Part shown: positions 3,022 through 64,000 of the stretch, piece by piece | Position numbering within the stretch: the first letter of the stretch is position 1 | How the letters are laid out: every line of letters starts with the position of its first letter | Assembly (NCBI GenBank): GCA_951406725.2 | Contig: OX597818.1 | Location: 114,142,001-114,206,000 of the forward strand | Length of the DNA: 64,000 bases | Direction: 5' to 3' | DNA from: Octopus vulgaris | Taxonomy: Eukaryota | The notes under the pieces: model-generated | What the model was told of the DNA's origin: nothing | What the model saw: only the letters and a program-made list of their open reading frames with translations | Databases searched by the model: none | Program-made: the position numbers and the translations under genes

Positions 3022-3072
<51 letters not shown>

Positions 3073-3221
3073 TATATACAATATATATATATACATATAC
3101 AACAATCAAGGAACGGCCATAATAGGCCATTCACCCACTAGAAATAACAGCCAAAGCTTCAACCGCAAATAAAAGTTAATTCTGTAAACCAGGAGAAAAT
3201 TTAAAAAACATTTACCCTGTA

Positions 3222-3328
3222 ATTTCTTATACGATATACCGTTTCATCTGCTGATTAATGGTAAACTAACCTGATTAAATTAAATCAAGCCAATCTTCCA
3301 CAGGCCCTCAGATTCTTCAGTAAGAAAT
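3222..3328 (-). ncRNA. Type I hammerhead ribozyme (array unit L1)
   Basis: Reverse complement of the motif detailed at 4623-4729. Confidence 0.9.
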
Positions 3329-3712
3329 AGCCCAAGTCGGAACAGATATTTTCACGAGGCATTTCCGACCTTGCCAAGTTTATATCTGACCTAAAATTTT
3401 CAAATCGTCGCACTCGCGCCAAATTTATCGGCAGCAAATAAATATAAGCCGTCGATTCCATTACGGAATTAACCAGAAAATTCATAATTAATCAATATAG
3501 GGTGGCAAAAAAATTTTGTAGAATTCTTTTGCCACCAGCGGCCTAGTAGGAAAAAATTAAATAGTCATAGACCATTTTTAAGTTCAACAACAACAATCAA
3601 GGAACGGCCATAATAGGCCATTCACCCACTAGAAATAACAGCCAAAGCTTCAACCGCAAATAAAAGTTAATTCTGTAAACCAGGAGAAAATTTAAAAAAC
3701 ATTTACCCTGTA

Positions 3713-3819
3713 ATTTCTTATACGATATACCGTTTCATCTGCTGATTAATGGTAAACTAACCTGATTAAATTAAATCAAGCCAATCTTCCACAGGCCCTC
3801 AGATTCTTCAGTAAGAAAT
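3713..3819 (-). ncRNA. Type I hammerhead ribozyme (array unit L2)
   Basis: Same motif as 3222-3328. Confidence 0.9.
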
Positions 3820-4204
3820 AGCCCAAGTCGGAACAGATATTTTCACGAGGCATTTCCGACCTTGCCAAGTTTATATCTGACCTAAAATTTTCAAATCGTC
3901 GCACTCGCGCCAAATTTATCGGCAGCAAATAAATATAAGCCGTCGATTCCATTACGGAATTAACCAGAAAATTCATAATTAATCAATATAGGGTGGCAAA
4001 AAAAATTTTGTAGAATTCTTTTGCCACCAGCGGCCTAGTAGGAAAAAATTAAATAGTCATAGACCATTTTTAAGTTCAACATCAACAATCAAGGAACGGC
4101 CATAATAGGCCATTCACCCACTAGAAATAACAGCCAAAGCTTCAACCGCAAATAAAAGTTAATTCTGTAAACCAGGAGAAAATTTAAAAAACATTTACCC
4201 TGTA

Positions 4205-4311
4205 ATTTCTTATACGATATACCGTTTCATCTGCTGATTAATGGTAAACTAACCTGATTAAATTAAATCAAGCCAATCTTCCACAGGCCCTCAGATTCTT
4301 CAGTAAGAAAT
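4205..4311 (-). ncRNA. Type I hammerhead ribozyme (array unit L3)
   Basis: Same motif; this unit is truncated 33 nt further on, at the inversion junction. Confidence 0.9.
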
Positions 4312-4622
4312 AGCCCAAGTCGGAACAGATATTTTCACGAGGCAGTTCCTTGATTGTTGTTGTTGAACTTAAAAATGGTCTATGACTATTTAATTTTTTC
4401 CTACTAGGCCGCTGGTGGCAAAAGAATTCTACAAAATTTTTTTTGCCACCCTATATTGATTAATTATGAATTTTCTGGTTAATTCCGTAATGGAATCGAC
4501 GGCTTATATTTATTTGCTGCCGATAAATTTGGCGCGAGTGCGACGATTTGAAAATTTTAGGTCAGATATAAACTTGGCAAGGTCGGAAATGCCTCGTGAA
4601 AATATCTGTTCCGACTTGGGCT

Positions 4623-4729
4623 ATTTCTTACTGAAGAATCTGAGGGCCTGTGGAAGATTGGCTTGATTTAATTTAATCAGGTTAGTTTACCATTAATCAG
4701 CAGATGAAACGGTATATCGTATAAGAAAT
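4623..4729 (+). ncRNA. Type I hammerhead ribozyme (array unit R1)
   Basis: Stem I is ATTTCTTA/TAAGAAAT and the core is CTGAAGA (4631-4637). Stem II is ATCTG...CAGAT with a long internal hairpin, followed by GAAA (4706-4709). Stem III is the near-palindrome ACGGTA/TATCGT. The cleavage triplet is GUA, with the cut predicted after 4721. Confidence 0.92.
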
Positions 4730-5115
4730 TACAGGGTAAATGTTTTTTAAATTTTCTCCTGGTTTACAGAATTAACTTTTATTTGCGGTTGAAGCTTTGG
4801 CTGTTATTTCTAGTGGGTGAATGGCCTATTATGGCCGTTCCTTGATTGTTGATGTTGAAACTTAAAAATGGTCTATGACTATTTAATTTTTTCCTACTAG
4901 GCCGCTGGTGGCAAAAGAATTCTACAAAATTTTTTTTGCCACCCTATATTGATTAATTATGAATTTTCTGGTTAATTCCGTAATGGAATCGACGGCTTAT
5001 ATTTATTTGCTGCCGATAAATTTGGCGCGAGTGCGACGATTTGAAAATTTTAGGTCAGATATAAACTTGGCAAGGTCGGAAATGCCTCGTGAAAATATCT
5101 GTTCCGACTTGGGCT

Positions 5116-5222
5116 ATTTCTTACTGAAGAATCTGAGGGCCTGTGGAAGATTGGCTTGATTTAATTTAATCAGGTTAGTTTACCATTAATCAGCAGATGA
5201 AACGGTATATCGTATAAGAAAT
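5116..5222 (+). ncRNA. Type I hammerhead ribozyme (array unit R2)
   Basis: Same motif; predicted cut after 5214. Confidence 0.9.
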
Positions 5223-5606
5223 TACAGGGTAAATGTTTTTAAATTTTCTCCTGGTTTACAGAATTAACTTTTATTTGCGGTTGAAGCTTTGGCTGTTATT
5301 TCTAGTGGGTGAATGGCCTATTATGGCCGTTCCTTGATTGTTGATGTTAACTTAAAAATGGTCTATGACTATTTAATTTTTTCCTACTAGGCCGCTGGTG
5401 GCAAAAGAATTCTACAAAATTTTTTTTGCCACCCTATATTGATTAATTATGAATTTTCTGGTTAATTCCGTAATGGAATCGACGGCTTATATTTATTTGC
5501 TGCCGATAAATTTGGCGCGAGTGCGACGATTTGAAAATTTTAGGTCAGATATAAAACTTGGCAAGGTCGGAAATGCCTCGTGAAAATATCTGTTCCGACT
5601 TGGGCT

Positions 5607-5713
5607 ATTTCTTACTGAAGAATCTGAGGGCCTGTGGAAGATTGGCTTGATTTAATTTAATCAGGTTAGTTTACCATTAATCAGCAGATGAAACGGTATA
5701 TCGTATAAGAAAT
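5607..5713 (+). ncRNA. Type I hammerhead ribozyme (array unit R3)
   Basis: Same motif; predicted cut after 5705. Confidence 0.9.
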
Positions 5714-6099
5714 TACAGGGTAAATGTTTTTTAAATTTTCTCCTGGTTTACAGAATTAACTTTTATTTGCGGTTGAAGCTTTGGCTGTTATTTCTAGTGG
5801 GTGAATGGCCTATTATGGCCGTTCCTTGATTGTTGATGTTGAACTTAAAAATGGTCTATGACTATTTAATTTTTTCCTACTAGGCCGCTGGTGGCAAAAG
5901 AATTCTACAAAATTTTTTTTTGCCACCCTATATTGATTAATTATGAATTTTCTGGTTAATTCCGTAATGGAATCGACGGCTTATATTTATTTGCTGCCGA
6001 TAAATTTGGCGCGAGTGCGACGATTTGAAAATTTTAGGTCAGATATAAACTTGGCAAGGTCGGAAATGCCTCGTGAAAATATCTGTTCCGACTTGGGCT

Positions 6100-6206
6100 A
6101 TTTCTTACTGAAGAATCTGAGGGCCTGTGGAAGATTGGCTTGATTTAATTTAATCAGGTTAGTTTACCATTAATCAGCAGATGAAACGGTATATCGTATA
6201 AGAAAT
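6100..6206 (+). ncRNA. Type I hammerhead ribozyme (array unit R4)
   Basis: Same motif; predicted cut after 6198. Confidence 0.9.
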
Positions 6207-6593
6207 TACAGGGTAAATGTTTTTTAAATTTTCTCCTGGTTTACAGAATTAACTTTTACTTGCGGTTGAAGCTTTGGCTGTTATTTCTAGTGGGTGAATG
6301 GCCTATTATGGCCGTTCCTTGATTGTTGATGTTGAACTTAAAAATGGTCTATGACTATTTAATTTTTTTCCTACTAGGCCGCTGGTGGCAAAAGAATTCT
6401 ACAAAATTTTTTTTTGCCACCCTATATTGATTAATTATGAATTTTCTGGTTAATTCCGTAATGGAATCGACGGCTTATATTTATTTGCTGCCGATAAATT
6501 TGGCGCGAGTGCGACGATTTGAAAATTTTAGGTCAGATATAAACTTGGCAAGGTCGGAAATGCCTCGTGAAAATATCTGTTCCGACTTGGGCT

Positions 6594-6700
6594 ATTTCTT
6601 ACTGAAGAATCTGAGGGCCTGTGGAAGATTGGCTTGATTTAATTTAATCAGGTTAGTTTACCATTAATCAGCAGATGAAACGGTATATCGTATAAGAAAT
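6594..6700 (+). ncRNA. Type I hammerhead ribozyme (array unit R5)
   Basis: Same motif; predicted cut after 6692. Confidence 0.9.
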
Positions 6701-6925
6701 TACAGGGTAAATGTTTTTTAAATTTTCTCCTGGTTTACAGAATTAACTTTTATTTGCGGTTGAAGCTTTGGCTGTTATTTCTAGTGGGTGAATGGCCTAT
6801 TATGGCCGTTCCTTGATTGTTGTTGTTGAACTTAAAAATGGTCTATGACTATTTAAATTTTTTCCTACTAGGCCGCTGGTGGCAAAAGAATTCTACAAAA
6901 TTTTTTTTGCCACCCTATATTGATT

Positions 6926-6990
<65 letters not shown>

Positions 6991-7016
6991 GATTATATAT
7001 ATATATATATATATAT

Positions 7017-7313
7017 GGAGGCGCAATGGCCCAGTGGTTGAAGCAGCGGACTCGCGGTCGTAGGATCGCGGTTCCGATTCCCAGACCGGGCATTGTGAGT
7101 GTTTATTGAGCGAAAACACCTAAAAGCTCCACGAAGCTCCGGCAGGGGGTGGTGATCCCTGCGGTACTCTTTCACCACTCTTTCTCTCACTCTTTCTTCT
7201 GTTGGCCTGCTCGCTTAGCCAGCGGGGTGGCGTCATTCGAAGGCCAAAACAATGCGAACGCATTGTGACCAGCGATGTGTAACTACATCTGATGGCCTGG
7301 TCGGTCACGTGAT

Positions 7314-7320
<7 letters not shown>
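7017..7320 (+). mobile_element. tRNA(Arg-like)-headed SINE, tail type 1
   Basis: Head GGAGGCGCAATGGCCCAGTGGTT...ACTCGCG...GTTCCGATTCC has A/B boxes and is shared with the copies at 14800, 39846 and 40277. It is inserted in (TA)n. Confidence 0.85.
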
Positions 7321-7351
<31 letters not shown>

Positions 7352-7401
7352 TTTTTCATACATTCATATATATTACTTTTTCATACAGGAATATATATAT
7401 T

Positions 7402-7451
<50 letters not shown>

Positions 7452-8286
7452 CGCGTGCTTGCATGTTTCTACTTATGCCGGTTTAACACTTTGGCAGTTC
7501 ACTTAATTTACTTGTCAGATGTAGATTAATATATTAAACTTAAATGACTATAAATTTTCCTTGCCCTGCGTGTGTAGGACAATAAAACTTTATGACTTCA
7601 CTTAGCAGTTTTACAATGAACTGAAAGACATTGCATTTGAAATCTATATATATAAAACTCAACTTGTATATCTGTGTGTGTATCTCTGTGTGTGCCTGTG
7701 TGTTTAACTTCCCGGCACATCTCCTAGCCAACAAATCGTAGAACCACCAAAAATGGGTCACTTAACGCTTAGGCGAATGAAGATTGAACTGCACTATTTC
7801 TGTTCCGAAATTCATCTCGCAAGTGCAAAAATCGATAATGTATTTGTTTAGGCCTTATCCCATGCATTGAATAGTGAACTTTACTCAGTCAGCTATTTGA
7901 CGTGAACTGTGTTCACCACGCGTGCAAGCATGCGTAAATTGCATGAAAAATAAAAAATCAAGATATAAAAACGAATCGCCGTAAACATTGTAGAAATTCG
8001 GCAAAGAAATGAGTTTTCGGGATGTAGCCTGGAGGGGTTTTTCGTATTAATCGTTTGGACTTTGTGAACACATACCAATTGTTTTCATAACATTTCAACG
8101 CTTTGAATTAAATGTGACCATTTTGCGTTGAGTCTGCAGTTTGAATCACTTTAACCAAATTTTAGCAGGCTGGATTTTTGATCATCACGATACATCGCCA
8201 GGGATTCCCTAAAACTCTCCCCTGAAATATATATATACTCTTTTACTTGTTTCAGTCATTTTGACTGTGGCCGGGTCATAGTGCTA

Positions 8287-8333
<47 letters not shown>

Positions 8334-8418
8334 GTCTGTTTCCCCCCTCCCCACCATCGCTTGGCAACCGATGTTGGTGTGTTTATGTCCCCGTAACTTA
8401 GTGGTTCGGCAAAACATG

Positions 8419-12004
<3,586 letters not shown>

Positions 12005-12123
12005 CCGATACTAGGTTTACAAAGAATAAGTCCTAGGACCGATTTGTTCGACTAAAGTCTGTGCTCCAGCATGTCCGCAGTCAAATGACTGAAACAAGTA
12101 TAAAAATATAAATATGTTAAACA

Positions 12124-12167
<44 letters not shown>

Positions 12168-12194
12168 CATATTAGAATATTAGAATATGTTATT

Positions 12195-12225
<31 letters not shown>

Positions 12226-13194
12226 GGTACTGTAAGTTTAGCGGGAATACTTGATAAGTGTAAGCACCTATGCCAGATAGTGGCAGAGGTGAGAGAATAT
12301 ATCAAACATAAATTGAAAACAGAACACAAAGGATATCGCAGTACACGTGTTTCAAGCTTTATAAACAATCTGTTAATGCATCAGCATAGGTATATCATTG
12401 ATATAAAAGATGGTTTAAAGCTCTCTTCAGCCGCAAACATTGTTAGTCCAAAATTACATCACAATATAATAAGTACTCGTAGTATTACCCATTATTATAG
12501 GTTTATCATATCCCTTTGAAAAGGTATATTTGCATAAAGGTTCGTTAGATTTCAAAAATCTGCCCATACTGTACCACCATTCAGCATAGAGTGAATGTTA
12601 AATAGATTGGATTGAGTTTATATTTAATTACCGTGTATAAGATAGAAAGAAAAAATAAAAGTATTCGTATGTGTAGTCATGATTGATGTTTTTGGAGACT
12701 GTAACTTGATCGGCGTTTGACAGTTATTAATAACAATGAACATATTGTTTTATGTAGCAAGGTCGATCAGTACATTAGCTGTCAAAGAATTGAATTTCCT
12801 AGCCTAAATGATTTGCATGGAAATGCAAACATTTGTGATTTTGCTTTCCTTTAGCACGTGTACCTTCGTGTGAAACGATTTATTCTATTCTAAACTTTCC
12901 CAGGAAGTTACATGGTTCTTTTCTTTCTTAGTCAACATATTCACAGGAATTATTATTCTCCTTTATTTAGTAATAACCCAGAGTTTGTTTACAAGCTTAA
13001 ATTTTTTGTTTGATTATTGTTCAAATCTTCATTAAATAGACTTATTTTTGCTTTTAAAGAGATGGTGTGTGGGTGTGTGTGAAAAAAGAAAATACGTACA
13101 ATATTTATTTTAATCCAAAAAATTAAAAGTTAGCCTCATTTTTGATATTTTTAGTGTCATTAATCATAATACTACATTTCTCATAACTATGATA

Positions 13195-14466
13195 TTAGGT
13201 TGTTCCGAAAATAATGGCCGACTTCAGAAACATAGTTTTATTCTGGAAAAATTAACAATAGAAATATTTTGATTTGTCAAATTATGACCCATGAACAGCT
13301 ATGCATCTCTCTCATCGATCAACGAGTTTATTTATGCTTCGTTGGCTTTGATGCTAAGAAATCTTTGAACGCTGATTCCACCTCTGGTTTGGACCTGAAA
13401 GTTTTATCACTTAAAAACGTGTTTAAATGCTTAAAAAAACGGTAGACAGTGGGTGAAAGATCAGGAGAATATGGAGGATGTGGTTTCGTCTCGTATTCCA
13501 AGTCTGTAAGTTTCTGTAGCGTCATTCTTGCAACATGTTGCTTTGCATTATCATGGAGCAGAATTGGGCCACACCGATTCACCAATGCAGGTCTCATTTT
13601 TTGCAAGTGAGCATGCATTTTAGCGAGTTGATTGCAGTAAACCTCTGCTGTAATGCTCTGATTGGCCTCCAGAGAGCTGTAATGGACACCACCAATTGCA
13701 GACCACCAGACTGTCACCGTAATCTTTTGCTGATGCAACTTTGGCTTTGGGAAATGTTTGGGGGACTCATCACGATCAAGCCATTGACCCGATCGTTTAC
13801 GGTTATAATAACGGATCCACTTTTCGTCACTAGTGACTATTCGGTTAAGAAAGGGATCATTGGTGTTTCGCAGAAAGAGCATCTTCAAGAAAGAGCACAC
13901 TTCAAAACGCCGAACTTTTTGATTTTCATTGAGCTCTTGCGTACCCCATTTATCGAGCTTTTTCACCCTACTAATCTTCTGCAGATTGCGTGAGACCAGT
14001 GTAATACCGAAATGAAGTGCATGAGTAATTTCTCTGACACTCTAACGTGGGTTTCGTTCAACAATTGCTTTCAACTGTTCATTGTTAAGACTGCACGACC
14101 GTCCTCTACCTTCTTCATCTTCAAGGCTCTCACCACCACTACGGAATTTTTGAAACCACCTTCGTACTGTCTGATCCCTTGTGGACCCCTCACCCCATGC
14201 TCTGTTGATATTGGTAGCGGTTTGGGAGGCATTGTGCCCAAGCTTGAACTCATGCGAGAAAAGTAAACGAAGGTCCTTTTTTGTCATGTTCATAATTAAG
14301 GACACCTCTTCAAGAATGTTTTCGAAATAAGTAGAAAATTATTAAAACGCATACATCAATTATTAACTATGTCGAAACTCCCCTAAAATATAATTAAAAT
14401 ACTATGATAAAATTACGTTTTAAAACATAACACTTAGAGCGGCCATTATTTTCAGAACAACCTTTA
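13195..14466 (-). mobile_element. Full-length decayed mariner (DD34D-type) transposon
   Basis: TIRs are TTAGGTTGTTCCGAAAATAATGGCCG / CGGCCATTATTTTCAGAACAACCT with TA flanks. The transposase is split over ORFs 14042-14305 (HTH, GRGRS) and 13328-13966 (TSDEKW, HDNA, HPPYSPDLSPTVY, in which the third catalytic D is mutated). Confidence 0.95.
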
Positions 14467-14799
14467 TAGTACTTTTATAGTAAAGTTTTGTCATGGTGAG
14501 AATCATGGCACCACATGTGAAAATGGATTAGCTAAGCTCGTATAAACAGCAGCATGTTTGACTGATAGCGAGTGATGAGAAATTGCTGGAAGTCGAAAGG
14601 TGGCGTTCGTGACTTCGCAGAGAGTTTAAAGGTGTCGTTCGTGAATTCGTGGAATCGCTGGAAATTATTGTGAAGTTGTTTTATTTCGTTGAGAGTTGTT
14701 TTGGATTGGTTACATTTGTTGGCAGAGTACTTAGCAATATATAAAGTGGAGACATTTGGAATCTTCCACGTTCCGTGATACTATATACCACACTGTAGT

Positions 14800-15182
14800 G
14801 GAGGCGCAATGGCGCAGTGGTTAGGGCAGCGGACTCGCGGTCGTAGGATCGCGGTTTCGATTCCCAGACCGGGCGTTGTGAGTGTTTATTGAGCGAAAAC
14901 ACCTAAAGCTCCACGAGGCTCCGGCAGGGATGGTGGTGATCCCTGCTGTACTCTTTCACCCAACTTTCTCTTACTCTTACTTCCTGTTTCTGTTGTACCT
15001 GTATTTCAAAGGGCCGGCCTTGTCACTCTCTGTGTCACGCTGAATATCCCCGAGAACTACGTTAAGGGTACACGTGTCTGTGGAGTGCTCAGCCACTTAC
15101 ACGTTCATTTCACGAGCAGGCTGTTCCGTTGATCGGATCAACCGGAACCCTCGTCGTCGTAACCGACGGAGTGCTTCCATCC
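14800..15182 (+). mobile_element. tRNA(Arg-like)-headed SINE, tail type 2, with target-site duplication
   Basis: Same head as 7017. The flanking direct repeat ATACCACACT occurs at 14785 and 15183. Confidence 0.9.
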
Positions 15183-15444
15183 ATACCACACTATTAGTGT
15201 ACGGCACTGAGATGACATATACAGAAGCCACGTTACAAAACTTTTAATGTTTTTGATAAAAACAGATGAAGTGAGTATTGTACGTGTTTTCTTTTTCCAT
15301 AACTGTATAATTACTTTTGTACCCCCGTATAAATAAGTCAAGCATTTTTTTACTAGGTATAATGGGTAGTAAAATGACACGACTGGTTTCGATGCTATGG
15401 AAGTATGCATGTATATCATCTATCATGAATACGTGTAGATTTTT

Positions 15445-15735
15445 GGTTAGGATATTGGATTCCCAATCGTATGATTGTGAGTTCGATTTCCGGCAGCTTG
15501 TTGTTTCCTTAAGCAAGACACTTTATTTCACATTGCTCCAGTCCAACTGTTGGTAAAAATGAGTTGTACCTGTATTTCAAAGGGACATCCTTGTCACTTT
15601 TTGCGTCATGCTAAATCTTCCTGAAAACTACGTTAAGCGTGCGCATGTCTGTGGACTTGTACGTTAATTTTACGACGTGGCTGTTCCATTGATCGGCTCA
15701 GCTGGAACACCCCTCGTCTTAACCGACAGTGTGAT
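15445..15735 (+). mobile_element. Older SINE sharing tail type 2 but with a different, degenerate head
   Basis: GTTGTACCTGTATTTCAAAGGG...AACTACGTTAAG...GGCTGTTCC...AACCGAC matches 14993-15168. Confidence 0.7.
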
Positions 15736-15904
15736 AATTTTATTTTATCTATCAAATGTTATTAGTTGAAGTCTTTGTATGCAGAAGGAACTGGTTTCTA
15801 ATAAAGAAATAAATCTGTCGATAAGATTTGGATAAGAACAAAGAGGATATGCTACACATTGAACTCAAAGAGGGCCATGCACACTGTGTTTACAAAGTGC
15901 ACAT

Positions 15905-16120
15905 TGGTCTCAAATTTTTACCACAAGGCCAGTAATTTCGCGTGTGGGGATAAGTCGACCACATTGACCCCCCCCCCCCAATGATCAACTGGTACTAATT
16001 TTATCGATCCCAAAAGGATGAAAAACAAAGCCGATCTCGGCTGAATTTGAACTCAAGACGGACGAAATGCCGCTAAGCATTTTGTCCGGCGTGCTGATGA
16101 TTTTGCCAGCTCGCCGCCTT
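15905..16120 (-). mobile_element. SINE of the family also present at 17515, 40965 and 57184
   Basis: Shared core TTTATCGAYCCCRAAAGGATGAAA..CAAAG.CGA.CTCGGC.GAATTTGAACTC, ending GCCAGCTCGCCGCC. Confidence 0.8.
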
Positions 16121-16426
16121 TGCGTTCACAAAATGCGTATTAGCTGTTCATTTAATTCTCCACCATGTTTTCGAGACTGATGCTTGGACACCCATTCAAC
16201 ATAACCAAGTTCACCAATGATTAAGAACAGGTTGGACCAAGTTTAGCAATAGAGTAGATAGGTTTCAAAGTCATTATCTATAAGAAGATTCCTTCGCAAC
16301 CACTTGGTTTCGGGTTCAGTCCTACTGTGTGGCACCTTAGGCATGTGGCTTCTACTATACCCTCAGGCCGACCAAAGCCTTGTGAGTGCAATTAGTTGAC
16401 GGAAACTGAAACAATAAAGTATATAT

Positions 16427-16767
16427 TCTCTTTTACTTGTTTCAGTCAGTTGACTGTGGCCATGCTGGAACACCGCCTTTAGTCGAGCAATTCGACCCCC
16501 AGGACTTATTCTTTGGAAGCCTAGTACTTATTCTATCGGTCTCTTTTGCCGAACCGCTAAGTTACGGGGACGTAAGCACACCAGCATCGGTTGTCAAGCG
16601 ATGTTGGGGAGACAAACACAGACACACAAACATACACATACACACACACATACACACACATATATATATATACATATATACGACACGCGTCTTTCAGTTT
16701 CCGTCTACCAAATCCACTCACAAGGCTTTGGTCGGCTCGAGGCTATAATAGAAGACACTTGCCCAAG
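16427..16767 (-). mobile_element. Abundant SINE with an internal (CA)n tract (other copies or fragments at ~8240-8510, 12000-12100, 16280-16410, 18810-19220, 19470-19580, 31455-31830, 38930-39250, 43846-43945, 45700-45897)
   Basis: Recurrent blocks CTTGTTTCAGTCA.TTGACTG.GGCCATGCTGG...GAACCGCTAAGTTACGGGGACGTAA...CAGTTTCCGTCTACCAAAT.CACTCACAAGGC. Confidence 0.85.
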
Positions 16768-16826
16768 TATATATACGTTATTGATTAATATATATATATT
16801 TTATTGAAAAGCAGCAAAAATATCAC

Positions 16827-16873
16827 AAAAACTGTTACTCAGAGTTTCACGTTCCCGTTCGTCGGACTATTTT
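16827..16873 (-). ncRNA. Minimal hammerhead, U4C core variant
   Basis: Minus strand reads aaaatagt-CCGACGA-ACG ggaa CGT-GAAA-CTC t GAG-TA-acagtttt. All three stems can form; stem I has one mismatch. Confidence 0.65.
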
Positions 16874-17514
16874 GTTTAGAATGGAACAGAAACAAGGTTA
16901 TAAGTAAACATATACAATTAGTTTAAGGGATAAACATTTGAAAATGGTTTTGTTTCATTGGTCCTTTTACCGAACCGCTGAGTTACGAGGACGTAAACAC
17001 ACCAACACTAGTTGTCAAGCGCTGGTGGGCGACAAACACTTACATAAAGACACACGCATATAAACACACGCATACACGCACACACACACACACACACACA
17101 CGCACACAAACACACACACACACACACACACGCATGCAAACACACACACACACACACACACACACGCGTACACACACACACACACACACACGTATTCAGT
17201 CAACGGAATTAATTGTATGTGTGTATGAGTGTGTGAATGCTTACAACTTTCAAAAGAATCTGACCGAGACTGGCGGACGCACACGCACCCCCCCTCATAC
17301 ACGCATAATATATACAACAGGGACTCGCACAGCTTTCGTCATTCGTTAACCGAAAGCTTTATTAATAAAACACTTGCTCAAGATATCACGCAATGGATTC
17401 GAACACGCGATCACGTGTTAGCGAAACTTAGTTATTAACCACAAAGCTATACGTAATTTTTGTATTTTCTTTTTCTTTTTACAAAGTGATTAACCTATGG
17501 TTGTTTAATTTATA

Positions 17515-18114
17515 TATTTCTTTACTACCCACAAGGGGCTAAACAGAGAGAGGACAAACAAGGACAGACAAACGGGTTAAGTCGATTATATCGACCACAG
17601 TGCGTAACTGGTACTTAATTTATCGACCCCAAAAGGATGAAAGGCAAAGCCAACCTCGGCGGAATTTGAACTCAGAACGTAACGACAGACGAAATGCCTA
17701 TTTCTTTACTACCCACAAGGGGGTAAACACAGAGAGGACAAACAAGGACAGACAAACGGGTTAAGTCGATTATATCGACCACAGTGCGTAACTGGTACTT
17801 AATTTATCGACCCCAAAAGGATGAAAGGCAAAGCCAACCTCGGCGGAATTTGAACTCAGAACGTAACGACAGACGAAATGCCTATTTCTTTACTACCCAC
17901 AAGGGGCTAAACACAGAGAGGAAAAACAAGGACAGACAAACGGATTAAGTCGATTATATCTATCCCAGTGCGTAATTGGTACTTATTTAATCGACCCCGA
18001 AAGGATGAAAGGCAAAGTCGACCTCGGCGGAATTTGAACTCAGAACATAACGGCAGACGAAATACCGCTAAGCATTTCGTCCGGCGTGCTAACGTTTCTG
18101 CCAGCTCGCCGCCT
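17515..18114 (-). mobile_element. SINE with a 184-bp internal trimer and a 19-bp TSD
   Basis: Units start at 17515, 17699 and 17883. The TSD TATGGTTGTTTAATTTATA is at 17496-17514 and 18115-18133. Confidence 0.92.
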
Positions 18115-18984
18115 TATGGTTGTTTAATTTATATCAGAGGGCTGGCTGTGCATTGTTTTGTAAAAGAAATATTTAGCTCATGCCGTTCAGAATAAACATG
18201 TGGTGAGTTGCATTTCCTTTTTCTCGATTTAAACCCAAAACAAAAGAAAGCTTAACGTGAGAAACAAAGACAACATCTCTACTTTGATCGTAAAGAGCAT
18301 TTTCACTCGTTTCCATGTTAACGAACAAATGGAGAAAATATAGAAAATATATGCAAACACTCGTTAATTCCATCCAATAAATCAATAAACATTTTGAAGA
18401 AGGTATTGATGTCCTGCACAACCAATATTCTGCTCTGTTAATCACAAAACAATTTATACACTTGTATACAGTGGAAGCTCGGTTTACGAATTTCACTCAT
18501 TCCGAAAGGCCGTTCTTTATCGAAAGTGTTCGTAAACCGAAGCTGTCTTTCTAATATGAAATTCATGAGAAGGCACGGCGAATTCGAGTAGACACGAACG
18601 CTAAACGAAAACAAGAAAACAACTGATCCCCGCAGGCTGATGGTCGAAGCCAGTGGCCCAGGGTTATTCCCCGCCTCCGTCTTCATCTATATACATGCAT
18701 ACATTCATACATACATACATACATACATACATACATACATACATACATACATACATACATACATACATGCACGCATGCACACACACACACACACGCATTC
18801 GAACATATATGGTTGTGTGGTAAGAAGCTTTTTACCCAACCGCATGTTCCGGTTTCAGTTCCACTGCGTGGCACCTTGGACAAGTGCCACGGGCTGACCA
18901 AAGCATTTTGAGTGTATTTCGTTGACGGAAACCGAATGAAGCCCATCGTATGTATGCATGTATGTACGTATATATATATATATA

Positions 18985-20482: not shown

Positions 20483-28930
<8,448 letters not shown>

Positions 28931-49812: not shown

Positions 49813-50016
49813 TAAAAGTCACAATACATGTATTAAAGCGCCACTAATAGTTTCATATGTTGAGAGAATTCCAACATATTCTTCAGGCGCAAACCACATA
49901 TCATACCGAACTAAAAAATTGAATAAATAGAAGAAACGGGATGAAGCTGAGAAAGCAGTATATAGAAAACGCAGACAGTAAACAACGGAAAGCGAAAAGC
50001 GGAAAAAGAAACTAAA

Positions 50017-51350
50017 GTGTCAAAAGGTAAAAGGTGCTATCCCCCTGAGGCCTTAAATGCTAAGTCTGGAAAGATAAAAGATACTATGATATCTATGAAG
50101 AAGTTAAATTCCTCGCATATTTATGATAGATTAGAATGCTTAGCTAAGAGAGAGGCGTTCATTACTTTAAAAGACTATTATCCACATTTTCATAATAATC
50201 CTTCCAGTGGATTGTTAAACCCAACGAGATCTGAAATTGGGCTAGTAGTTAAAAAATACTTAGGAGTATTAATATTAGAATTAAGGAAATTACTGGGCTT
50301 CAACAATAGAACAACAGTTTTACTGTAATAGATTGGTTTAAGAATATCAAGAATAAGAATAAGGCTAAATTTACCCAGTTTGATATCATAGACTTTTATC
50401 CCTTTGTATCTAGATCGCTACTTGATAAAGCTATTGAACTTACTAATTCATACGTTGAAATTGACCCTATAGATCTAGATTTTATCAGGCATACGAGAAC
50501 ACTTTTGTTCACTAAAGGTTTAGCATGAGTAAAAATGTTGCATAGTGATGAACTATTTGATGCATCCATGGGGTCATGTGATAGTGCTGATGTCTGTGAT
50601 CTTGTGGGTGTATTAAACACATTGAGATATAGATACCCAGCTCATGACATTGGCCTATACCGTGACGACGGTTTAGGTATTTCCCTTGGGTGTAATGGTT
50701 ACACCCTTGATAGATTTAGGAAGGAATTAATTTCAACATTTAATCTATTAGGACTTAAAATAACCGTAGCTATTAATCTCTGTATAGTTCATTACTTAGA
50801 TGGTTCCCTAGATTTAAACTCCTCGTATAAACCTTTCCATAAGCCTAATGAGAAACTCACATATATACATAAACAATCTTGTTACCTTCCTGTAGTATTT
50901 AAAAACCTGATAGCTAATATCAGTAACAGAGTGTCTAACCTCTCTTCTTCCAAAGAAATTTTCGACGAAGCTGCTCCCTATTATAAAAAGGCCTTAACCA
51001 AGAGTGATTTCAAATATAAATTGAAATATAAACCCTCTATTAATCAAAATATATACTTAGCAGATCTAGTGGTATCAAAGATAAAGTAGTACCTAACCAT
51101 TCTAGTATTAATCAGGATAATAAGTAACCAAAAAAATAGGACAACGAAAATTATTTGGTTCGCCCCTCTCTTTTCCCTTAGTATCAAAACTAACATTGGT
51201 AAAAAATTCCTGTCACTCCTAGACAAACACTCTCCAGCTACTCACAGATACAGGAAAATATTCAATAGGCGTTCTGTGAAATTATCATATAGCTTCCGCC
51301 GTTTAATACTATATATTAACAATATTAAATCTCTGAGCGACAAGTAAACG
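50017..51350 (+). pseudogene. Penelope-like element RT remnant
   Basis: AFITLKD..F.NNP..LLNP.RSEIG, FTQFDIIDFYP, FDASMGSCDSADVCDLVG, GLYRDDGLG, YLD, YKPFHKPN and IIWFAP..TNIGKKFLSLLDKH, with stops and frameshifts. Confidence 0.9.
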
Positions 51351-52753: not shown

Positions 52754-54740
52754 TTAAGTGATAAACTTCTGGAAAGTTTTACAGATTTGTGTAGTTCCAG
52801 TGATGGATTTGATCAGTAGTCTTCGAATTAGTTTTCTCCTTTCTGGTTTAGAGAAGCCTAATTCCTCAAGATTGGTATTTAGACAGTGTGTTACATATCC
52901 CAAGTTCCCAATAATTGCAGGTATAAACCTGAACTTGCAATCTGGATAGAGTAGCTGCAGATTTCTCTTTTCACTGTTCTTCAGCTTTATGTTAACATCC
53001 TCTGGGCAGCTAATTTCCACAACTGTGCACAGTTTCTCTTCTCTATCCCAAATCCTTATATCAGGTCTGTTGTGCTTACATTTTATTGAAGCTTTCACTG
53101 GGACATTCCACAGTAATCCATACTGCGAGTTCTTATTTCTTATCCATCCGACGTATTTCATTATATAGTGTCCTAGCTACAACATCATGACTCATCGGTA
53201 GATAATACCGAGATGACATTTTCGGACGACTGCTTATGATGTGGGTGATATCTTCGGTCTTAACTCTACAAAGTCTGCATCGGTTGTCACATTTTACTGC
53301 TTTTCCTGCGTCTCTATCCCTTGTGTGCATCAGGTATTTGGTTGATATTTTCTGTTCCTGGATTGCAAACACATACCTTTCAAAGTGGGAGGTAGTAATC
53401 TGGCTATTAGTCCATGATAGACTGCTTTGATGATCAATGTTACTATCATCTCGGAGCTTTCTACTAATATATATATGCACGGTCTTCTGCTGATATACGC
53501 TCACCCTTTCATCTGATGATATATTTCGGTAGAGTCGTGTGACGTCTTTGGGCATGTATTTAAGTCTATCAGATAAGGAATGTTTCTCAAAGAGCTGCTT
53601 TCTAAGTCTCATGGTTTTATCAGCCTCATATATGTAAACTTCGTCAAGGGACACACTTCGACACTTGATGGTTAAAAGATGTTGCCGAAGGGATATGATA
53701 CGACATTCAAAGGCCGTCTGGACTGATGTTAAACCTCTGCCACTTTGTTTTCATTTCAGGTAAAGACGCTACTGTTGATGTGGAAGTTACGTGTGCTGGT
53801 TAGAAAATTCCGGGTTTTCACACCAGTGACTCGGATCTCATCAAGCGTCCAATCAAGCAGCCCAACTGTTGGTATGAGTACTGGCACTCCAAAGAAATTT
53901 TGTTGAATGCAGAGAGTTTCGAGGTCTAAATTTTCTTTATTCTACTGTAATATTCTTTAGTGTTACGTTGCAGGTTCCATTGTAAGACATGTTTTCATCC
54001 ACCCCTAGACGCCTGTAACATTCATCATCAAATATAGGGGATGTTGCTAGGGTGGTTTACAGTTTTTCCCTTTTCATAATCATATAGCAACAATTTTCCT
54101 GACCAAATTCCAACCCTACATTCTTTGAGAATGTTTTAACCAGGTCAGAGCTCTTTTTCATCTCGTGCATATTCTTTGCATAAAGATTCAAGCCAACCAC
54201 ACAAAACAAGTATGCTATTTTGGTATTTCTGTTTCCTTGGGAACCAGTGAGATATCCTTCAGACTTCCATAACATGAACGACAATGGATTTACAGAAAGT
54301 ATAAACAACATCACAGAGCGGTTGTCTCCTTGGAATAAACCTCTGCGAAACTCTACTCTGCCAGTGATAATACAATCACATTTTGCATTTAACTTCAAGA
54401 TGGTGGCCCACGATGAAGTCAGGTCACCTATCACATTGACCATGCTCACTGGAACTTTAGAAGATTGAAAGGCTTCTAGCATCCGTGAGTGAGGAACAGA
54501 ATCAAAGGCTTTCTTGTAGTCTAGCCACATTGAAACTAGATTCCTCCTATGCTCTCGCACGTCCGGCATTACAGTTTTGCTTAACAGTTGCTCGGCACAT
54601 TCCTAGAATCCGTTCATCCCAGCCGCTTGTTCTCCTGTGATGATGTTATTACTTTCACAACGGTGTTGGAGGAAGAGGTTTAAGCATGCTGTTTATATTG
54701 TATACGTTAAGCTCTGGCATGCTATCGGCCGGTAGTGTAT
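52754..54740 (-). pseudogene. Decayed R4-type LINE (RT plus REL), a different family from the 24876 element
   Basis: [41 protein letters not shown] and HNRPDI..VVEISCP. Confidence 0.88.
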
Positions 54741-58460: not shown

Positions 58461-58510
58461 TATATATATATATATATTTAAAATAATATGTTACAATTAC
58501 TCAATAGTCA

Positions 58511-58573
58511 AGATAAAACTCTGAGTTTCAGATGCCGAAGTGGAAATCCACAACACCATCTCTTCGGTTATCT
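58511..58573 (-). ncRNA. Hammerhead-like motif (U4C variant) downstream of the PLE on the same strand; partial copy at ~1600-1680
   Basis: Minus strand reads agataa-CCGAAGA-GATG..(gtgga ttt ccac)..CATC-t-GAAA-CTC a GAG-TT-ttatct. Confidence 0.6.
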
Positions 58574-59369
58574 GGCCATCTGAAAAAACGCTATGAAAAA
58601 TACCGTTATATAAAGGGAAATTACTGTGTTATAATAAGATTAAAATTTCATAGTAAACATGTCTAGTGATACGCTCACATGTGCGCTCGCGGACCCACGT
58701 GCGTACTTATGCGTCACTATGAAAACGTACACATCTTCACTCGCATTTTTCGCCAAATATATACGTATATATATACAAACTCATACACGCAACATGCGTA
58801 CCGTAAAAGTTCATACATACGTCTATATACGCACAAGCGCAAGAAAAACAATGGTTAAAGGTAACAGAAAAAACATAAGGAAGTATACAAAGCATAAAAA
58901 CCACGTTCATATACGGACATGCCCTTATGCACTCATACACACACGCCCATATATGTACATACCCGTACATGTTTATATACGCATACACACACATGCATAT
59001 ACGAAAAATGAATATACATATGCCCCCCCACACACACACCAAAAAAACCTTAAAAAATGGAAAAGTACTAAGTAAAAACGTCTATATATATATATGCATT
59101 CTTATGCCCGCACACACGCACACATCTAAAACTGCCCACTCAGACATATTCATACACGTGTACAAATGAATCTATATACACGTCTATATAGGCACAGGTA
59201 AAAATGCAGGATAGAAAAGTACAGAAAAAATTATTGTGTGAAAATATAAAAATATATGAAATAATAAAAGGTATAATGAGATAAAAACTTTTTGGGACAT
59301 AATATAGAAAGCAAGTTCTATCTGTTTTCTTTAGGGGACTAAAAACGTAATAAAAATTTTGTCACATGT

Positions 59370-60530
59370 GGGCATGATCCGAAAAGTTCTGTCCTTGAGT
59401 TTAGACATGTAGTAGGGTCTAAACTGCTTTTCCTGATAAGCCATCTCTCCATGTCGCACAGACCGCACTTTCCGCTGCCGTTGGTGTAGGGCTTACATTT
59501 TGCCAAAATCTTCCAATGGATGTTATAATCGACACCTTTATCTTTTAAAGACCAAATATGATTAGATAATTTTGTCGCTTTTCTTTTGTTCCAGTGCCTA
59601 AACTCAAGGTGTGGTTATTGAACCTGGCCTTGAAATTACCCTCTGTAAGGCCCACGTATTTCTTCGTCGAAACGGTGTCTTTAGTGGTTATAGAGTCCAC
59701 GGTAGCTTCATAGATGATGGTCTCGGACATGCAAGCTCCATTTAGCGGGCACAATTTTTTATTCCTGCATGAACAGCTGTTTTCTTGTTGTGGTTTTTGT
59801 GTGTTATGTGTGATTATATTTTTAAAATTGGTAGTTGAACTAAAACTAATTTTTAAATTGTGTTTATTGAAGAGTTTCCTATAAGTATGGTTAACTGGAA
59901 AATGTCTATCTATCAGTGTTAAGAAATATTTACCTATATTGAAGGTCACCTCAGGTGAGTAAGGGGGTGTAAACCAGATGATCTTCCTATTTCTATTTTT
60001 CCTCTTCTTTACTGTTAGGCTAGTAACAGGTGTATATTTTATTTTTTCGCTAAAACCACTATCTTTTAAAGCCTTATTATAAACTGGGGCAACGCTATTA
60101 AAAATGTCCTTATCGGAGGAGAGGCTAGAAATTCTCTTACTAATATTTTAAACTAAATTTTTGAATACTATAGGGGGATGGCATGAACCTACATTAATAT
60201 AACTAAGTCTATCATTGGGCTTCCTATAATGCTTATAAATATTCTTATTTAGATCTAAGGAAACGTCTAGGAAATTGACAACCGTCAGGTTAGTATCTAT
60301 AGCTATACTAAGTCCGAAGTATTTCATTAATTGGATAATATCCTTCCTAAAACGATCCTGTGCTGGTCCATTTGTATTAGCGGTTAAAGCGAGGGCATCA
60401 TCTTTGTAGATGGCGAAATATACGTCAGGAAATGTCTTACCTAAAGTATCTAAGAGAAAAAATCCAATAATATCGCAAATGCCTGCTGCATCATATGACC
60501 CCATGCTCACATCGAAAGCACCCTCTGTTT
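59370..60530 (-). pseudogene. Penelope-like element remnant: RT C-terminal half plus GIY-YIG endonuclease
   Basis: SMGSYDAAGICDIIG, IYKDDAL, VNFLDV and HPP, then FNIGKYFLTLIDRHF, CSCR..CPLNGAC, IIYEATV...KYVGLTE..FKARFNNH and a downstream CGLC. Confidence 0.92.
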
Positions 60531-62613: not shown

Positions 62614-62684
<71 letters not shown>

Positions 62685-62687
<3 letters not shown>

Positions 62688-63133
62688 CAAAATTAAGGAA
62701 CGGCCATAATAGGCCGTTCAACCCACTAGAAATAGCAGCCAAGGCTTCAACCGCAAAACAATATTAATTCCGTAAACCAGGAGAAAATTTAAAAAAACAT
62801 TTACCCTGTAATACTTTATACAATGCATCGTTTCGTCTATTTTTTAATGGTAAATCAACCTGATTAAATTAAATCAAGCTAATCTTCCATAGGCCAATAG
62901 ATTCATCAGTAAAGTAAGCCAGACGGGACAGATATTTTCACGAGGCAGCACCATTACTGTCTCGGCTATATCTGACCTAAAATTTTCAAATCATCGTACT
63001 CGTGCCAAATTTATCGGCAGCAAATATAAGCTGCCGATTCCATTTCGGAATTAAACAGAAAATTCATAATTAATCAATATAGGGTGGCAAAAAATTCAGC
63101 AGAAATTATTTGCCACCAGCAAATATTGATTAA
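62685..63133 (-). mobile_element. Diverged solo copy of the ~492-bp HHR unit
   Basis: Colinear with 3099-3540, with many substitutions; flanked by (TA)n on both sides. Confidence 0.95.
62812..62916 (-). ncRNA. Type I hammerhead ribozyme (solo copy)
   Basis: TACTTTA-CTGATGA-aTCTATT...AATAGAc-GAAA-CGATG CATTG-TA-TAAAGTA. The stems are conserved by compensatory changes relative to the array. Confidence 0.88.
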
Positions 63134-63143
63134 TATATATTGA

Positions 63144-63191
<48 letters not shown>

Positions 63192-63211: not shown

Positions 63212-63262
<51 letters not shown>

Positions 63263-63448
63263 TAAGCAATTAAGGGTTTAGCAACGAATTGCCTCATCAC
63301 ACACCCAATTTAGAAATAGCAGTCAAAGGGTTATAGCTATTCTTTCTACTAAAAGGGAGATCTCAGTAAAAACACAGCACTTGAAAGGCAAACACAGACA
63401 GGTAAGAGAGAATGAAATGACGCCAATCTATCATACAAGTTTAAGTCA

Positions 63449-63539
63449 CCTACGGACGTACGTTTCGAAATCAAGTTTTAGGAAAGCATAAGAATTAGAT
63501 AATTCTACCTTACCCAACTTCTTTTCTCATCAGCGTAGG
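63449..63539 (-). ncRNA. Canonical type I hammerhead ribozyme (left arm of the palindrome)
   Basis: CCTACG-CTGATGA-GAAA...TTTC-GAAA-CGTACG-TC-CGTAGG. Stem I is perfect, stem III is the palindrome ACGTACGT and the triplet is GUC. Confidence 0.9.
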
Positions 63540-63719
63540 ATACTACAATGATGAATAATTGTATATTAAATTTTGAGATACTAGAAGGCATCATCTCAAA
63601 TCAGTGTCAGAGCGAGCTAAAGCATTACATTAAATGCTTTAGCTCGCTCTGACACTGAGTTGAGATGATGCCTTCTAGTATCTCAAAATTTAATATACAA
63701 TTATTCATCATTGTAGTAT

Positions 63720-63810
63720 CCTACGGTGATGAGAAAAGAAGTTGGGTAAGGTAGAATTATCTAATTCTTATGCTTTCTTAAAACTTGATTTCGAAACGTA
63801 CCTCCGTAGG
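63720..63810 (+). ncRNA. Mutated hammerhead (right arm of the palindrome)
   Basis: Same motif, but the core reads GTGATGA (C3G) and stem III reads CGTACCTC; probably inactive. Confidence 0.6.
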
Positions 63811-64000
63811 TGACTTAAAATTGTATGATAGATTGCCGTCATTTCATTCTCTCTTACCTGTCTGTGTTTGCCTTTCAAGTGCTGTGTTTTTACTGAGATC
63901 TCCCTTTTAGTAGAAAGAATAGCTATAACCCTTTGACTGCTATTTCTAAATTCGGTGTGTGGTGAGGCAATTCGTTGCTAAACCCTTAATTGCTTAGTAT

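Follow-up and report, generated by a model that had tools for sequence, protein, structure and literature searches.

The closest described relatives of the locus studied here are the metazoan non-LTR retrozymes of coral, mussel, and axolotl (Cervera and de la Pena 2020, PMC7229834). Circular RNAs have been shown for these elements, and the accessible part of that study proposes that they cycle via monomers and circles with the help of a borrowed reverse transcriptase (RT), naming Penelope-like elements (PLEs) as a candidate. How animal retrozymes return to DNA is proposed rather than shown in its discussion. In the accessible part of a later study, vertebrate retrozymes are described as non-autonomous PLE derivatives, a view based on co-occurrence and on homology to pLTRs; of nine Xenopus retrozyme dimers tried there, eight did not cleave in vitro (Li, Clavereau, and Pollet 2026, 10.64898/2026.07.22.740005). 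On the PLE side, EN+ elements (Penelope/Poseidon, Neptune, Hydra, and Naiad) have an inverted arm and a tail (PMC8557442, PMC3846280), and in vitro work shows two sites of RT initiation marked by this tail (PMC11167929). The role of the hammerhead in PLE cycles has been termed unclear (PMC8557442). The anole PLE did not require ribozyme cleavage in vitro, and its RNA-seq reads included none with an end at the cut (PMC11167929). Non-LTR retrozymes are a known class, and a PLE origin for them has been proposed in print.

Here, we describe a hammerhead-bearing array within a 64,000-nucleotide stretch of Octopus vulgaris DNA, which we call the window. The account that we find reasonably likely is that of a non-LTR retrozyme copied into (TA)n by a PLE endonuclease and RT, from RNA that its hammerhead likely cuts and that likely occurs in circular form as well.

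The locus in the window and its dispersed family

The original prediction described a satellite-like array of ~492-bp units. The unit length was recovered (491-494 nt), but the array at 3100-6927 is a single insertion belonging to a young dispersed family, not a satellite, and consists of two head-to-head arms on opposite strands inside (TA)n (Table 1). Tandem units at this locus are ~99% alike, the GC content of the element is ~0.35, and inverted repeats and TA border it. A frame scan of 3100-6927 found no reading frame of at least 150 amino acids, leaving the window element without coding capacity. Read after PMC11167929, the "tail" at the right end would lie between two reverse-transcription start sites.

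Table 1. Features of the two-armed insertion and its predicted hammerheads (positions within the window).
Feature	Position	Strand	Remarks
(TA)n target microsatellite, left flank of insertion	3024..3099		(TA)n context recurs at most ends across 78 loci
Left arm, 2.5 units, reads outward	3100..4344	-	outer end at unit ~130 post-cut (site A); inner end ~362
Head-to-head junction	4341..4349		arms overlap by 9 nt with one mismatch (microhomology)
Right arm, 5.2 units	4345..6927	+	inner end at unit ~112-116; outer end ~235 (site B)
"Tail" between sites A and B, ~107 nt	6823..6927	+	on right end only
(TA)n target microsatellite, right flank of insertion	6929..7016		
Cut-to-cut monomer, reference unit	4722..5214	+	493 nt; window range 491-494
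Type I hammerhead motif	4623..4729	+	predicted cut after 4721
Type I hammerhead motif	5116..5222	+	predicted cut after 5214
Type I hammerhead motif	5607..5713	+	predicted cut after 5705
Type I hammerhead motif	6100..6206	+	predicted cut after 6198
Type I hammerhead motif	6594..6700	+	predicted cut after 6692
Type I hammerhead motif	4205..4311	-	predicted cut after 4213 (minus strand)
Type I hammerhead motif	3713..3819	-	predicted cut after 3721 (minus strand)
Type I hammerhead motif	3222..3328	-	predicted cut after 3230 (minus strand)

Exact copies of a 32-mer spanning the predicted cut number 792. Family copies lie on at least 20 contigs, the best of them 98-100% identical, and the unit is present in contigs of 20 of 24 sequencing-run rows (five organisms), none of these rows being on record as RNA. 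Two outer ends recur across the family, site A at ~130-132 nt and site B at ~235-239 nt downstream of the predicted cut, and all 440 exact copies of the site-A end run directly into TATAT. By a strict pattern, 59 of 78 loci have one end of each type, lying on opposite strands and within (TA)n; 5 more do so by eye. Arms range from tens of bases up to 9.3 units, the maximum among the loci fetched, and inner junctions vary between loci; at one of these (L250), both arms end at the cut. Junctions show microhomology, often with templated filler derived from an AT-rich stretch that holds a palindrome at unit 21-34.

These are dispersed, non-coding tandem units of a few hundred bases, low in GC and each with a type I hammerhead, in agreement with the retrozyme identity first suggested for the array. 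The copies also have 5'-truncated arms, inverted head to head, and a tail at one of their two ends, and they sit in AT-rich or (TA)n targets. Inverted arms, two fixed ends, and a tail form the insertion signature of PLEs, and we hold with high confidence that PLE-type retrotransposition made these insertions. The signature, with its two fixed outer ends in (TA)n, did not feature in the original prediction.

The hammerhead motif and its variation

A type I descriptor found eight identical 107-nt motifs in the window, spaced 491-494 nt apart, and had 0 matches in 60 first-order Markov 64-kb control sequences. This recovered the stems and the plus-strand cut positions predicted earlier. Each motif comprises an 8-bp stem I, the core CUGAAGA, a 5-bp stem II closing a 68-nt domain, GAAA, stem III, and the GUA site; three helices thus surround a CUGANGA / GAAA / NUH core, with stem I open. 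The label "canonical type I hammerhead" fits this core and its helices, but it does not extend to Rfam, in which the window had no match at gathering score and 4340-5340 matched no hammerhead family even at E<=10, probably because of the long stem II.

The motif has a predicted folding energy of -31.4 kcal/mol, and its reverse complement one of -18.2. Stem III (ACGGUAUAUCGU) needs G-U pairs to be self-complementary. Its predicted energies, -13.6 for a two-strand duplex vs. -0.2 for a hairpin, agree with the suggestion that a palindromic stem III favors dimers. In the monomer, stem III has a predicted pair probability of 0.07-0.08, and the MFE is predicted to be 5.4 kcal/mol lower than the active fold. 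For the circular monomer, z-scores of folding did not separate the two strands (-3.98 vs. -4.31).

Variation among copies follows the pattern of an active core, with N7 free, the remaining core fixed, and the helices kept. Among 393 pieces, core and stem positions carried 0 inherited and 9 single-copy variants, compared to 51 inherited and 95 single-copy variants in the rest of the unit (p=0.03; sites 27 and 130 were dropped from allele counts as homopolymer artefacts). N7 was the sole core position with inherited variation, holding three inherited alleles. Subfamilies within this family (family A) differ by a stem II pair (G-C to A-U), by loop III (UAUA to UGCA, equally palindromic), and by the cleavage site (GUA to GUC). 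Only 2 pairs changed on both sides, a number reached by 445 of 500 shuffles, and each such change within family A is probably one event. The fold is retained in sister families B and C, whose stems differ and whose stem III palindromes are perfect; all three families share a region at unit ~150-294. Taken together, the conserved core and stems, the free N7, and stems covarying over three families indicate, at the level of sequence, selection on catalysis.

Arm ends, unit alleles, and the template RNA

To locate arm ends, we took a census of all 69 site-A loci listed for two contigs (C1 and C2). On first arrival at the cut, 32 of 96 arms stopped at unit 486-25 against a background of 4.6%, in a 33-nt window picked only after the result of a tighter window was known. 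On later arrivals, only 3 of 63 stopped there (Fisher p=1e-5 vs. first arrivals); if the extra units arose by DNA-level expansion, this contrast drops to 3/23 arms (P=0.026) or 9/54 (P=0.005) vs. one third. The tighter window (489-8), fixed beforehand, held 11 stops vs. 3.1 expected (P=2.6e-4) with an exact-match walker, which produces false stops at indels and in older subfamilies. The census used an X-drop walker, which failed to pick up the site-A arms at L129 and at the window locus; L221 was excluded from the tally, and the end of L223, which reached the limit of its fetched stretch, was uncounted. An earlier arm-end test (9/103 at the cut) was set aside because its loci had been chosen by sequence spanning the cut; another window was equally high.

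The two arms of a locus tended to behave alike. Among loci in which both reached the first cut, 11 were stop/stop, 20 pass/pass, and 2 discordant (p=7e-7). Site-A arms stopped at unit 1-16, several of them at 1-2, and site-B arms mostly at 15-25, within the AT-rich stretch. First-arrival stops, matching arms, and core variation confined to N7 suggest that cut linear RNAs were likely templates, alongside a second, non-stop class. From arm ends and core conservation, we consider it very likely that the ribozyme cleaves RNA in vivo, and we lean slightly toward circles as the non-stop class.

Alleles within loci bear on the same point. Distance was 0.0022 within loci vs. 0.0121 between them (lowest of 300 permutations, 0.0100), which suggests that insertions passed through a bottleneck of one monomer. 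Ten alleles confined to one locus were fixed in all 3-9 copies there, nine of them on both arms, and nine locus-private alleles occurred in some but not all copies, with the sharing copies often non-adjacent. The 131T allele had 14 carrier loci and was mixed only in the window locus and L031, whose long arms both read T,A,A,A,A,T (chance ~1 in 15). This mixed pattern points to a multimeric template at these two loci rather than a monomer circle, consistent with the prediction that the array was a reverse-transcribed multimer. Both arms of L221 contain a rearranged stretch longer than 1.2 kb, which incorporates 27 nt from the flank of that locus. Partly shared private alleles, L221, and the T/A phase indicate that multimeric templates or DNA-level copying occur. 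A deleted unit (138 joined to 393) was seen twice in L134 and nowhere else, and it was not counted as evidence because it could have arisen from a small circle as well as by local duplication.

These patterns could fit together as follows. Read-through transcripts of an array would be cut after GUA, probably by dimeric hammerheads pairing their palindromic stems III, to give ~492-nt monomers, some of which would be ligated into circles where a lone hammerhead should fold poorly. A PLE protein would nick both (TA)n strands, and cDNA synthesis would be primed at two constant positions of the RNA, ~132 and ~239 nt post-cut, producing the two outward-pointing arms whose ends are seen in the genome. 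On cut linear RNA, both arms would halt at or just after the cut, as in the ~350-bp insertions observed. On a second template class, presumably circular RNA for the most part, mono- or oligomeric, they would pass the cut repeatedly, as in arms of up to 9.3 units. The two cDNA ends would then be joined via microhomology, often with AT-rich templated filler, as the junctions display. We would put even chances on the fuller claim that the genome holds a fossil record of the entire retrozyme cycle, with twin PLE priming, a stop at the cut when the template was linear, and up to nine rounds when it was a circle.

One alternative keeps PLE-type insertion and an active ribozyme and dispenses with circles. 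Long arms would instead come from linear multimers that escaped cleavage entirely (protein-bound, edited, or misfolded), with arrays rebuilt and homogenized by unequal DNA exchange. The T,A,A,A,A,T phase common to the window locus and L031 fits this, as do the non-adjacent shared variants in L122, L051, and L037 and the structure of L221. Moreover, the right arm in the window halts at 112-116 in a T unit and the left arm may have its start at 130, also within a T unit, which is what twin priming of a single linear RNA should produce. Unprocessed RNA was also the dominant in vitro substrate of the anole PLE (PMC11167929), and unequal crossover is the tandem-growth model in the accessible part of 10.64898/2026.07.22.740005. 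However, cleavage would have to be all-or-none, since independent cleavage predicts later stops at 33% rather than the 3/63 observed, and arrays could shrink but never grow on linear templates, yet locus-private alleles are fixed throughout arms of 4-6 units. An excess of site-B arms ending at site A, seen in an earlier sample, did not reach significance in the census (8/66 vs. 4.8 expected, P=0.10), and no parent array with the longer T/A pattern required was present among the 28 T-allele copies of the assembly. We regard this alternative as the less likely account but a serious contender.

It is much less probable that arm ends cluster near the cut owing to an internal transcription start or to an AT-rich hotspot for joining (the unit 21-34 palindrome), with the hammerhead as a passenger. 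Site-B arms do halt mostly inside the AT-rich stretch rather than at position 1, and junction fillers consist of that same stretch. Still, a hotspot or promoter present in every unit should also act on later passes, where stops were rare, and it does not account for site-A arms halting at the cut itself or for the signs of selection on catalysis. In-place satellite DNA, or a MITE-like DNA transposon with the arms as terminal inverted repeats, is very improbable despite the near-identical units and the inverted repeats and TA at the borders, because two different fixed ends 107 nt apart, free inner junctions, and hundreds of short insertions dispersed over many contigs, with arms from tens of bases to 9 units among the loci fetched, argue for 5'-truncated retrotransposition over cut-and-paste or local growth.

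Partner, novelty, and comparison with known systems

The favored account, retrozyme RNA inserted by PLE machinery, calls for a protein donor. No autonomous PLE sharing unit sequence was found among the ORF-bearing loci fetched (150 of 6,136-18,492 candidates scored per search), so we infer the partner from insertion structure alone. Likewise, no ORF joined to the unit appeared in a GIY-YIG family search, two protein searches, older family B, family C, or 20 site-B loci, and ORF scans of those 20 loci and of families B and C gave no RT-like frame by eye. Unit matches beside PLE ORFs at L072 and L268 were rejected as partners, being separate insertions. The window element was itself rejected as an autonomous PLE, as it showed no ORF that could encode RT and GIY-YIG endonuclease. 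The same genome contains two young families whose ORFs are intact and which insert into (TA)n with two ends.

Our literature search found no such insertion-site evidence for retrozymes, although supplementary family lists may bear on novelty, and three short unit motifs were absent from the accessible part of the PMC8557442 supplement. Judged against the literature, the family may be undescribed. It is young enough that hundreds of insertions retain both ends and junctions, and these place each of the two priming sites with a precision of a few bases and yield a germline cleavage signal and a split between stop and non-stop templates. The intact PLE-type ORFs make circle vs. linear multimer testable in the published in vitro PLE assay. 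If the long arms do record rolling-circle copying, they would be direct evidence for animal circular RNA as a template of rolling-circle retrotransposition and would imply that a PLE-associated hammerhead cleaves in the germline. A self-processing, target-primed template RNA of ~500 nt would also be a compact handle for work on circular RNA and RNA-templated insertion.

As far as the accessible parts of the sources go, our family resembles the retrozymes of PMC7229834 in that its units are tandem and non-coding and each carry a single type I hammerhead, and in its low GC, its lack of LTR features and ORF, and its weak palindromic stem III favoring dimeric cleavage. It differs in unit length (492 nt vs. 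150-450), in a 68-nt stem II domain unmatched by Rfam, and in insertions into (TA)n built of head-to-head arms whose two outer ends are fixed. Here, the RT step leaves a measurable footprint; circles were shown there, whereas we infer them. As in the accessible account of 10.64898/2026.07.22.740005, the retrozymes appear to use PLE machinery, and the unit falls within the 51-972 bp reported. By contrast, we rely on how the insertions are built and on where arms stop, and we found no homologous pLTR. One third of the arms in our family end at the ribozyme cut, a site at which the anole PLE gave no read ends (PMC11167929).

With EN+ PLEs, according to the accessible parts of the PLE papers, our family shares an inverted 5'-truncated arm, a one-end tail, two RT starts downstream of the hammerhead, (TA)n preference, microhomology junctions, and multicopy head-to-tail non-autonomous forms (Chlamys MRC1). 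It differs from them in having no ORF and in a tail of ~107 nt, compared to 30-40 in those papers. The tails of the two autonomous families in the same genome measure ~40 and ~70 nt. L1 twin priming and the ribozyme-defined 5' ends of R2 offer further comparisons. Unlike either, our family has no poly(A) priming, starts at fixed internal sites, and has a tandem unit that is read through repeatedly.

Array structure and family members

The window array is a real genomic feature. The original prediction of eight identical copies of a 107-nt type I hammerhead motif, with their places and cut sites, was recovered by a type I descriptor search (five on the forward and three on the reverse strand), and the same descriptor gave 0 matches in 60 Markov controls. 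The Rfam search proposed with that prediction found no match. Unit numbering starts at the first nucleotide after the predicted cut (window 4722). In folding, stem II had a pair probability of 0.97-1.0, and stem I is likely formed as well. Stem III was weak as a hairpin (pair probability 0.07-0.08) but strong as a two-strand duplex (computed at -13.6 kcal/mol).

The array consists of two head-to-head arms that overlap by 9 nt, with a (TA)n run on each side. A 32-mer that spans the cut has 792 exact copies in the 2.8-Gb genome, where we counted 440 exact ends at site A and 577 forward-strand ends at site B (the two fixed outer arm ends), the latter including older subfamilies; the reverse-strand site-B count was left out as redundant. 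By a strict pattern, 59 of 78 young loci have ends at both site A (unit 130-132) and site B (233-239), one on each strand. Paired ends were recognised by eye in five further loci, and the remaining loci had a single end. Inner junctions varied between loci, with microhomology or short fillers, and the longest arms reached 9.3 units. Relatives of family A, to which the window element belongs, carry hammerheads of their own, and their ends in (TA)n are paired in the same way: older subfamilies at 85-95% identity, family C at about 73%, and family B, in which similarity is confined to unit 151-294 (69%).

Features of the window and of named loci (window positions unless a locus is named)
Feature	Position	Strand	Details
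Left arm	3100-4344	-	unit 362 to 130
Right arm	4345-6927	+	unit ~114 to 235
Presumed E2F-like motif	about 5019-5029		unit 298-308
A-to-G clusters	5177-5202		ribozyme strand; contigs of sequencing runs X3 and X12
Third hammerhead-like motif	12336-12436	-	long stem II, palindromic stem III
Perfect (ATT)n run	20800-24875		4,076 bases, 1,359 copies, 100%
LINE-type RT frames (RVT_1) and mariner-type transposase fragment (Transposase_1)	25054-28860, 53136-54602, 13331-14041	all -	
Broken PLE-type RT ORF fragments	about 50000-51300 and from 52100	+	
Broken PLE-type RT ORF fragment	58480-60520	-	717-aa family
Older family-A member	62684-63150	-	82-90% identical; unit 183-483 then 7-134
Fold-back element	about 63260-63900		head-to-head, ending in (TA)n
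Unrelated hammerhead	63449-63539	-	stem I 6 bp, long stem II, palindromic stem III, GUC site
Deleted arm copies	L134 1737-2291		unit 138 joined to 393
Young two-ORF PLE family	L100-L115, e.g. L103 768-2204 and 2126-4468		479-aa upstream frame; 781-aa RT plus GIY-YIG

Several other features were observed. The older family-A member carries short site-B-like remnants adjoining a (TA)n run. One arm at L134 has the same internal deletion in two tandem copies, and a genome-wide search for its junction found no second locus. The unrelated hammerhead sits in the fold-back element, which is likely another insertion of Penelope-like element (PLE) type. A TG/TA microsatellite lies about 120 nt away from the third hammerhead-like motif. 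The (ATT)n run is unusually long and is possibly an assembly artefact.

Arm ends and variation at the ribozyme

Our first locus sample, with 9 of 103 arm ends at the cut, was uninformative because its loci were selected by sequence spanning the cut. The census lists every site-A locus for contigs C1 and C2 (n=69). In a window fixed in advance (489-8), 11 stops were found vs. 3.1 expected (P=2.6e-4). In a wider window picked from the data of that test (486-25), 32 of 96 first arrivals, the arms reaching a first cut, stopped there vs. a 4.6% background, made up of 19/60 site-A arms and 13/36 site-B arms. Stop junctions varied by locus, often with repeated AT-rich filler, and at L250 the cut was the endpoint of both arms. 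The simplest reading is that RNAs with the ribozyme cut as their 5' end would have been reverse transcribed in the germline. Cleavage was dispensable in vitro for an anole PLE (PMC11167929), and a 2026 preprint gives eight of nine Xenopus retrozyme dimers as inactive (10.64898/2026.07.22.740005).

Among 393 pieces from the 78 loci, the 38 core and stem positions held 0 inherited and 9 single-copy variants, compared to 51 and 95 in the remainder of the unit (p=0.03); N7 had three inherited alleles. This variation and the stop positions are the two lines of evidence bearing on whether the ribozyme is used. Between subfamilies, stem II shows one change of a G-C pair to A-U, the palindrome of loop III goes from UAUA to UGCA, and the triplet from GUA to GUC. 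Covariation support is modest because such pairs were no more numerous than in shuffles. At L221, loop III read UGCA in all 9 copies, otherwise an older-subfamily feature. The A-to-G clusters include one at core A15.1, and their sites are invariant in about 190 genomic pieces; they give a hint of A-to-I editing of paired inverted arms, from low-depth contigs of runs whose RNA origin is guessed.

Templates of the two arms

In the 33 census loci where both arms reached a first cut, both stopped in 11, both passed in 20, and only 2 were discordant (p=7e-7); therefore, one molecule or one template class serves both arms. After passing the first cut, arms rarely stopped at later ones (3/63 in the census, 6/76 at other loci). 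Haplotypes were locus-specific over both arms (distance 0.0022 within loci vs. 0.0121 between), and 10 single-locus alleles were fixed across all copies of their locus, which requires a one-unit bottleneck and then regrowth. Such private alleles may recur elsewhere because our sample covers 78 of several hundred loci. Circular templates would explain all at once the concordant arms, rare later stops, locus-specific haplotypes, and fixed private alleles, and we give the rolling-circle reading about an even chance.

The 131T allele occurs at 14 loci, the sole mixed ones being the window locus and L031, whose long arms each show the order T,A,A,A,A,T (a chance of about 1-in-15). This suggests that the window element shares a multimeric template with L031. 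Nine private alleles were present in only part of their locus's copies, and at L221, a complex locus, both arms contain a rearranged stretch including 27 nt of its own flank. These three observations speak against a simple circle as template; circles of several units, linear multimers that escaped cutting altogether, or copying at the DNA level at a later time could each produce them. If extra units are assumed to be DNA-level expansion, the contrast between first and later cuts is smaller yet present (3/23 arms, P=0.026; 9/54, P=0.005). The rarity of later stops rules out linear multimers in which every site is cut independently, template jumping that fails at a constant rate, and a hotspot in the sequence that is active at each pass.

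Penelope-like signature and known systems

PLE insertions are described as 5'-truncated arms in inverted orientation, one end of which bears a tail (PMC8557442; PMC3846280). In vitro, both strands of AT-rich DNA are nicked and RT then starts at two internal sites, with the tail as the stretch between them (PMC11167929). In the same genome, two young families that have intact ORFs also insert in (TA)n with two ends, about 40 nt apart for the first (781-aa RT plus GIY-YIG) and about 70 nt apart for the second (717-aa). The 717-aa protein had no Pfam match, and a window fragment of its family matches GIY-YIG at E=0.02; we take this family to be PLE-type from its structure and RT motifs. No sequence common to the unit and either ORF family was found in the ORF-bearing loci compared.

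The 717-aa family is very abundant and young, with many intact copies, some tandem with a 2.59-kb period, and its terminal repeat (pLTR) carries a hammerhead-like motif with a CCGAAGA core and long stem II. A hammerhead-like motif is also present in the pLTR of the 781-aa family; its core, UUGAUAA, has the double change C3U/G8A. The unit motif that we take to be E2F-like is kept in family C and resembles 3'-region motifs of another PLE family (L085, L091); it is a possible internal promoter element.

In literature listings, we found no paper on a cephalopod retrozyme, and neither a two-end PLE signature in retrozyme insertions nor a pile-up of arm ends at a hammerhead cut. The preprint argues a PLE origin of retrozymes from co-occurrence and pLTR homology (10.64898/2026.07.22.740005). 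Judged from its DNA, the unit would function like a metazoan non-LTR retrozyme, and it shows the testable features of that class (PMC7229834). Its weak-hairpin, strong-duplex stem III is shared with hammerheads that cleave as dimers when in multimers and are thought to remain uncut in circular monomers (PMC4209133). The worth of this system lies in its insertion population, through which both the copying of retrozymes and the part played by the PLE-associated hammerhead become testable. As a retrozyme, its class is ordinary, and its distinguishing traits are the long stem II, the 107-nt tail between sites A and B, and the two-armed insertions.
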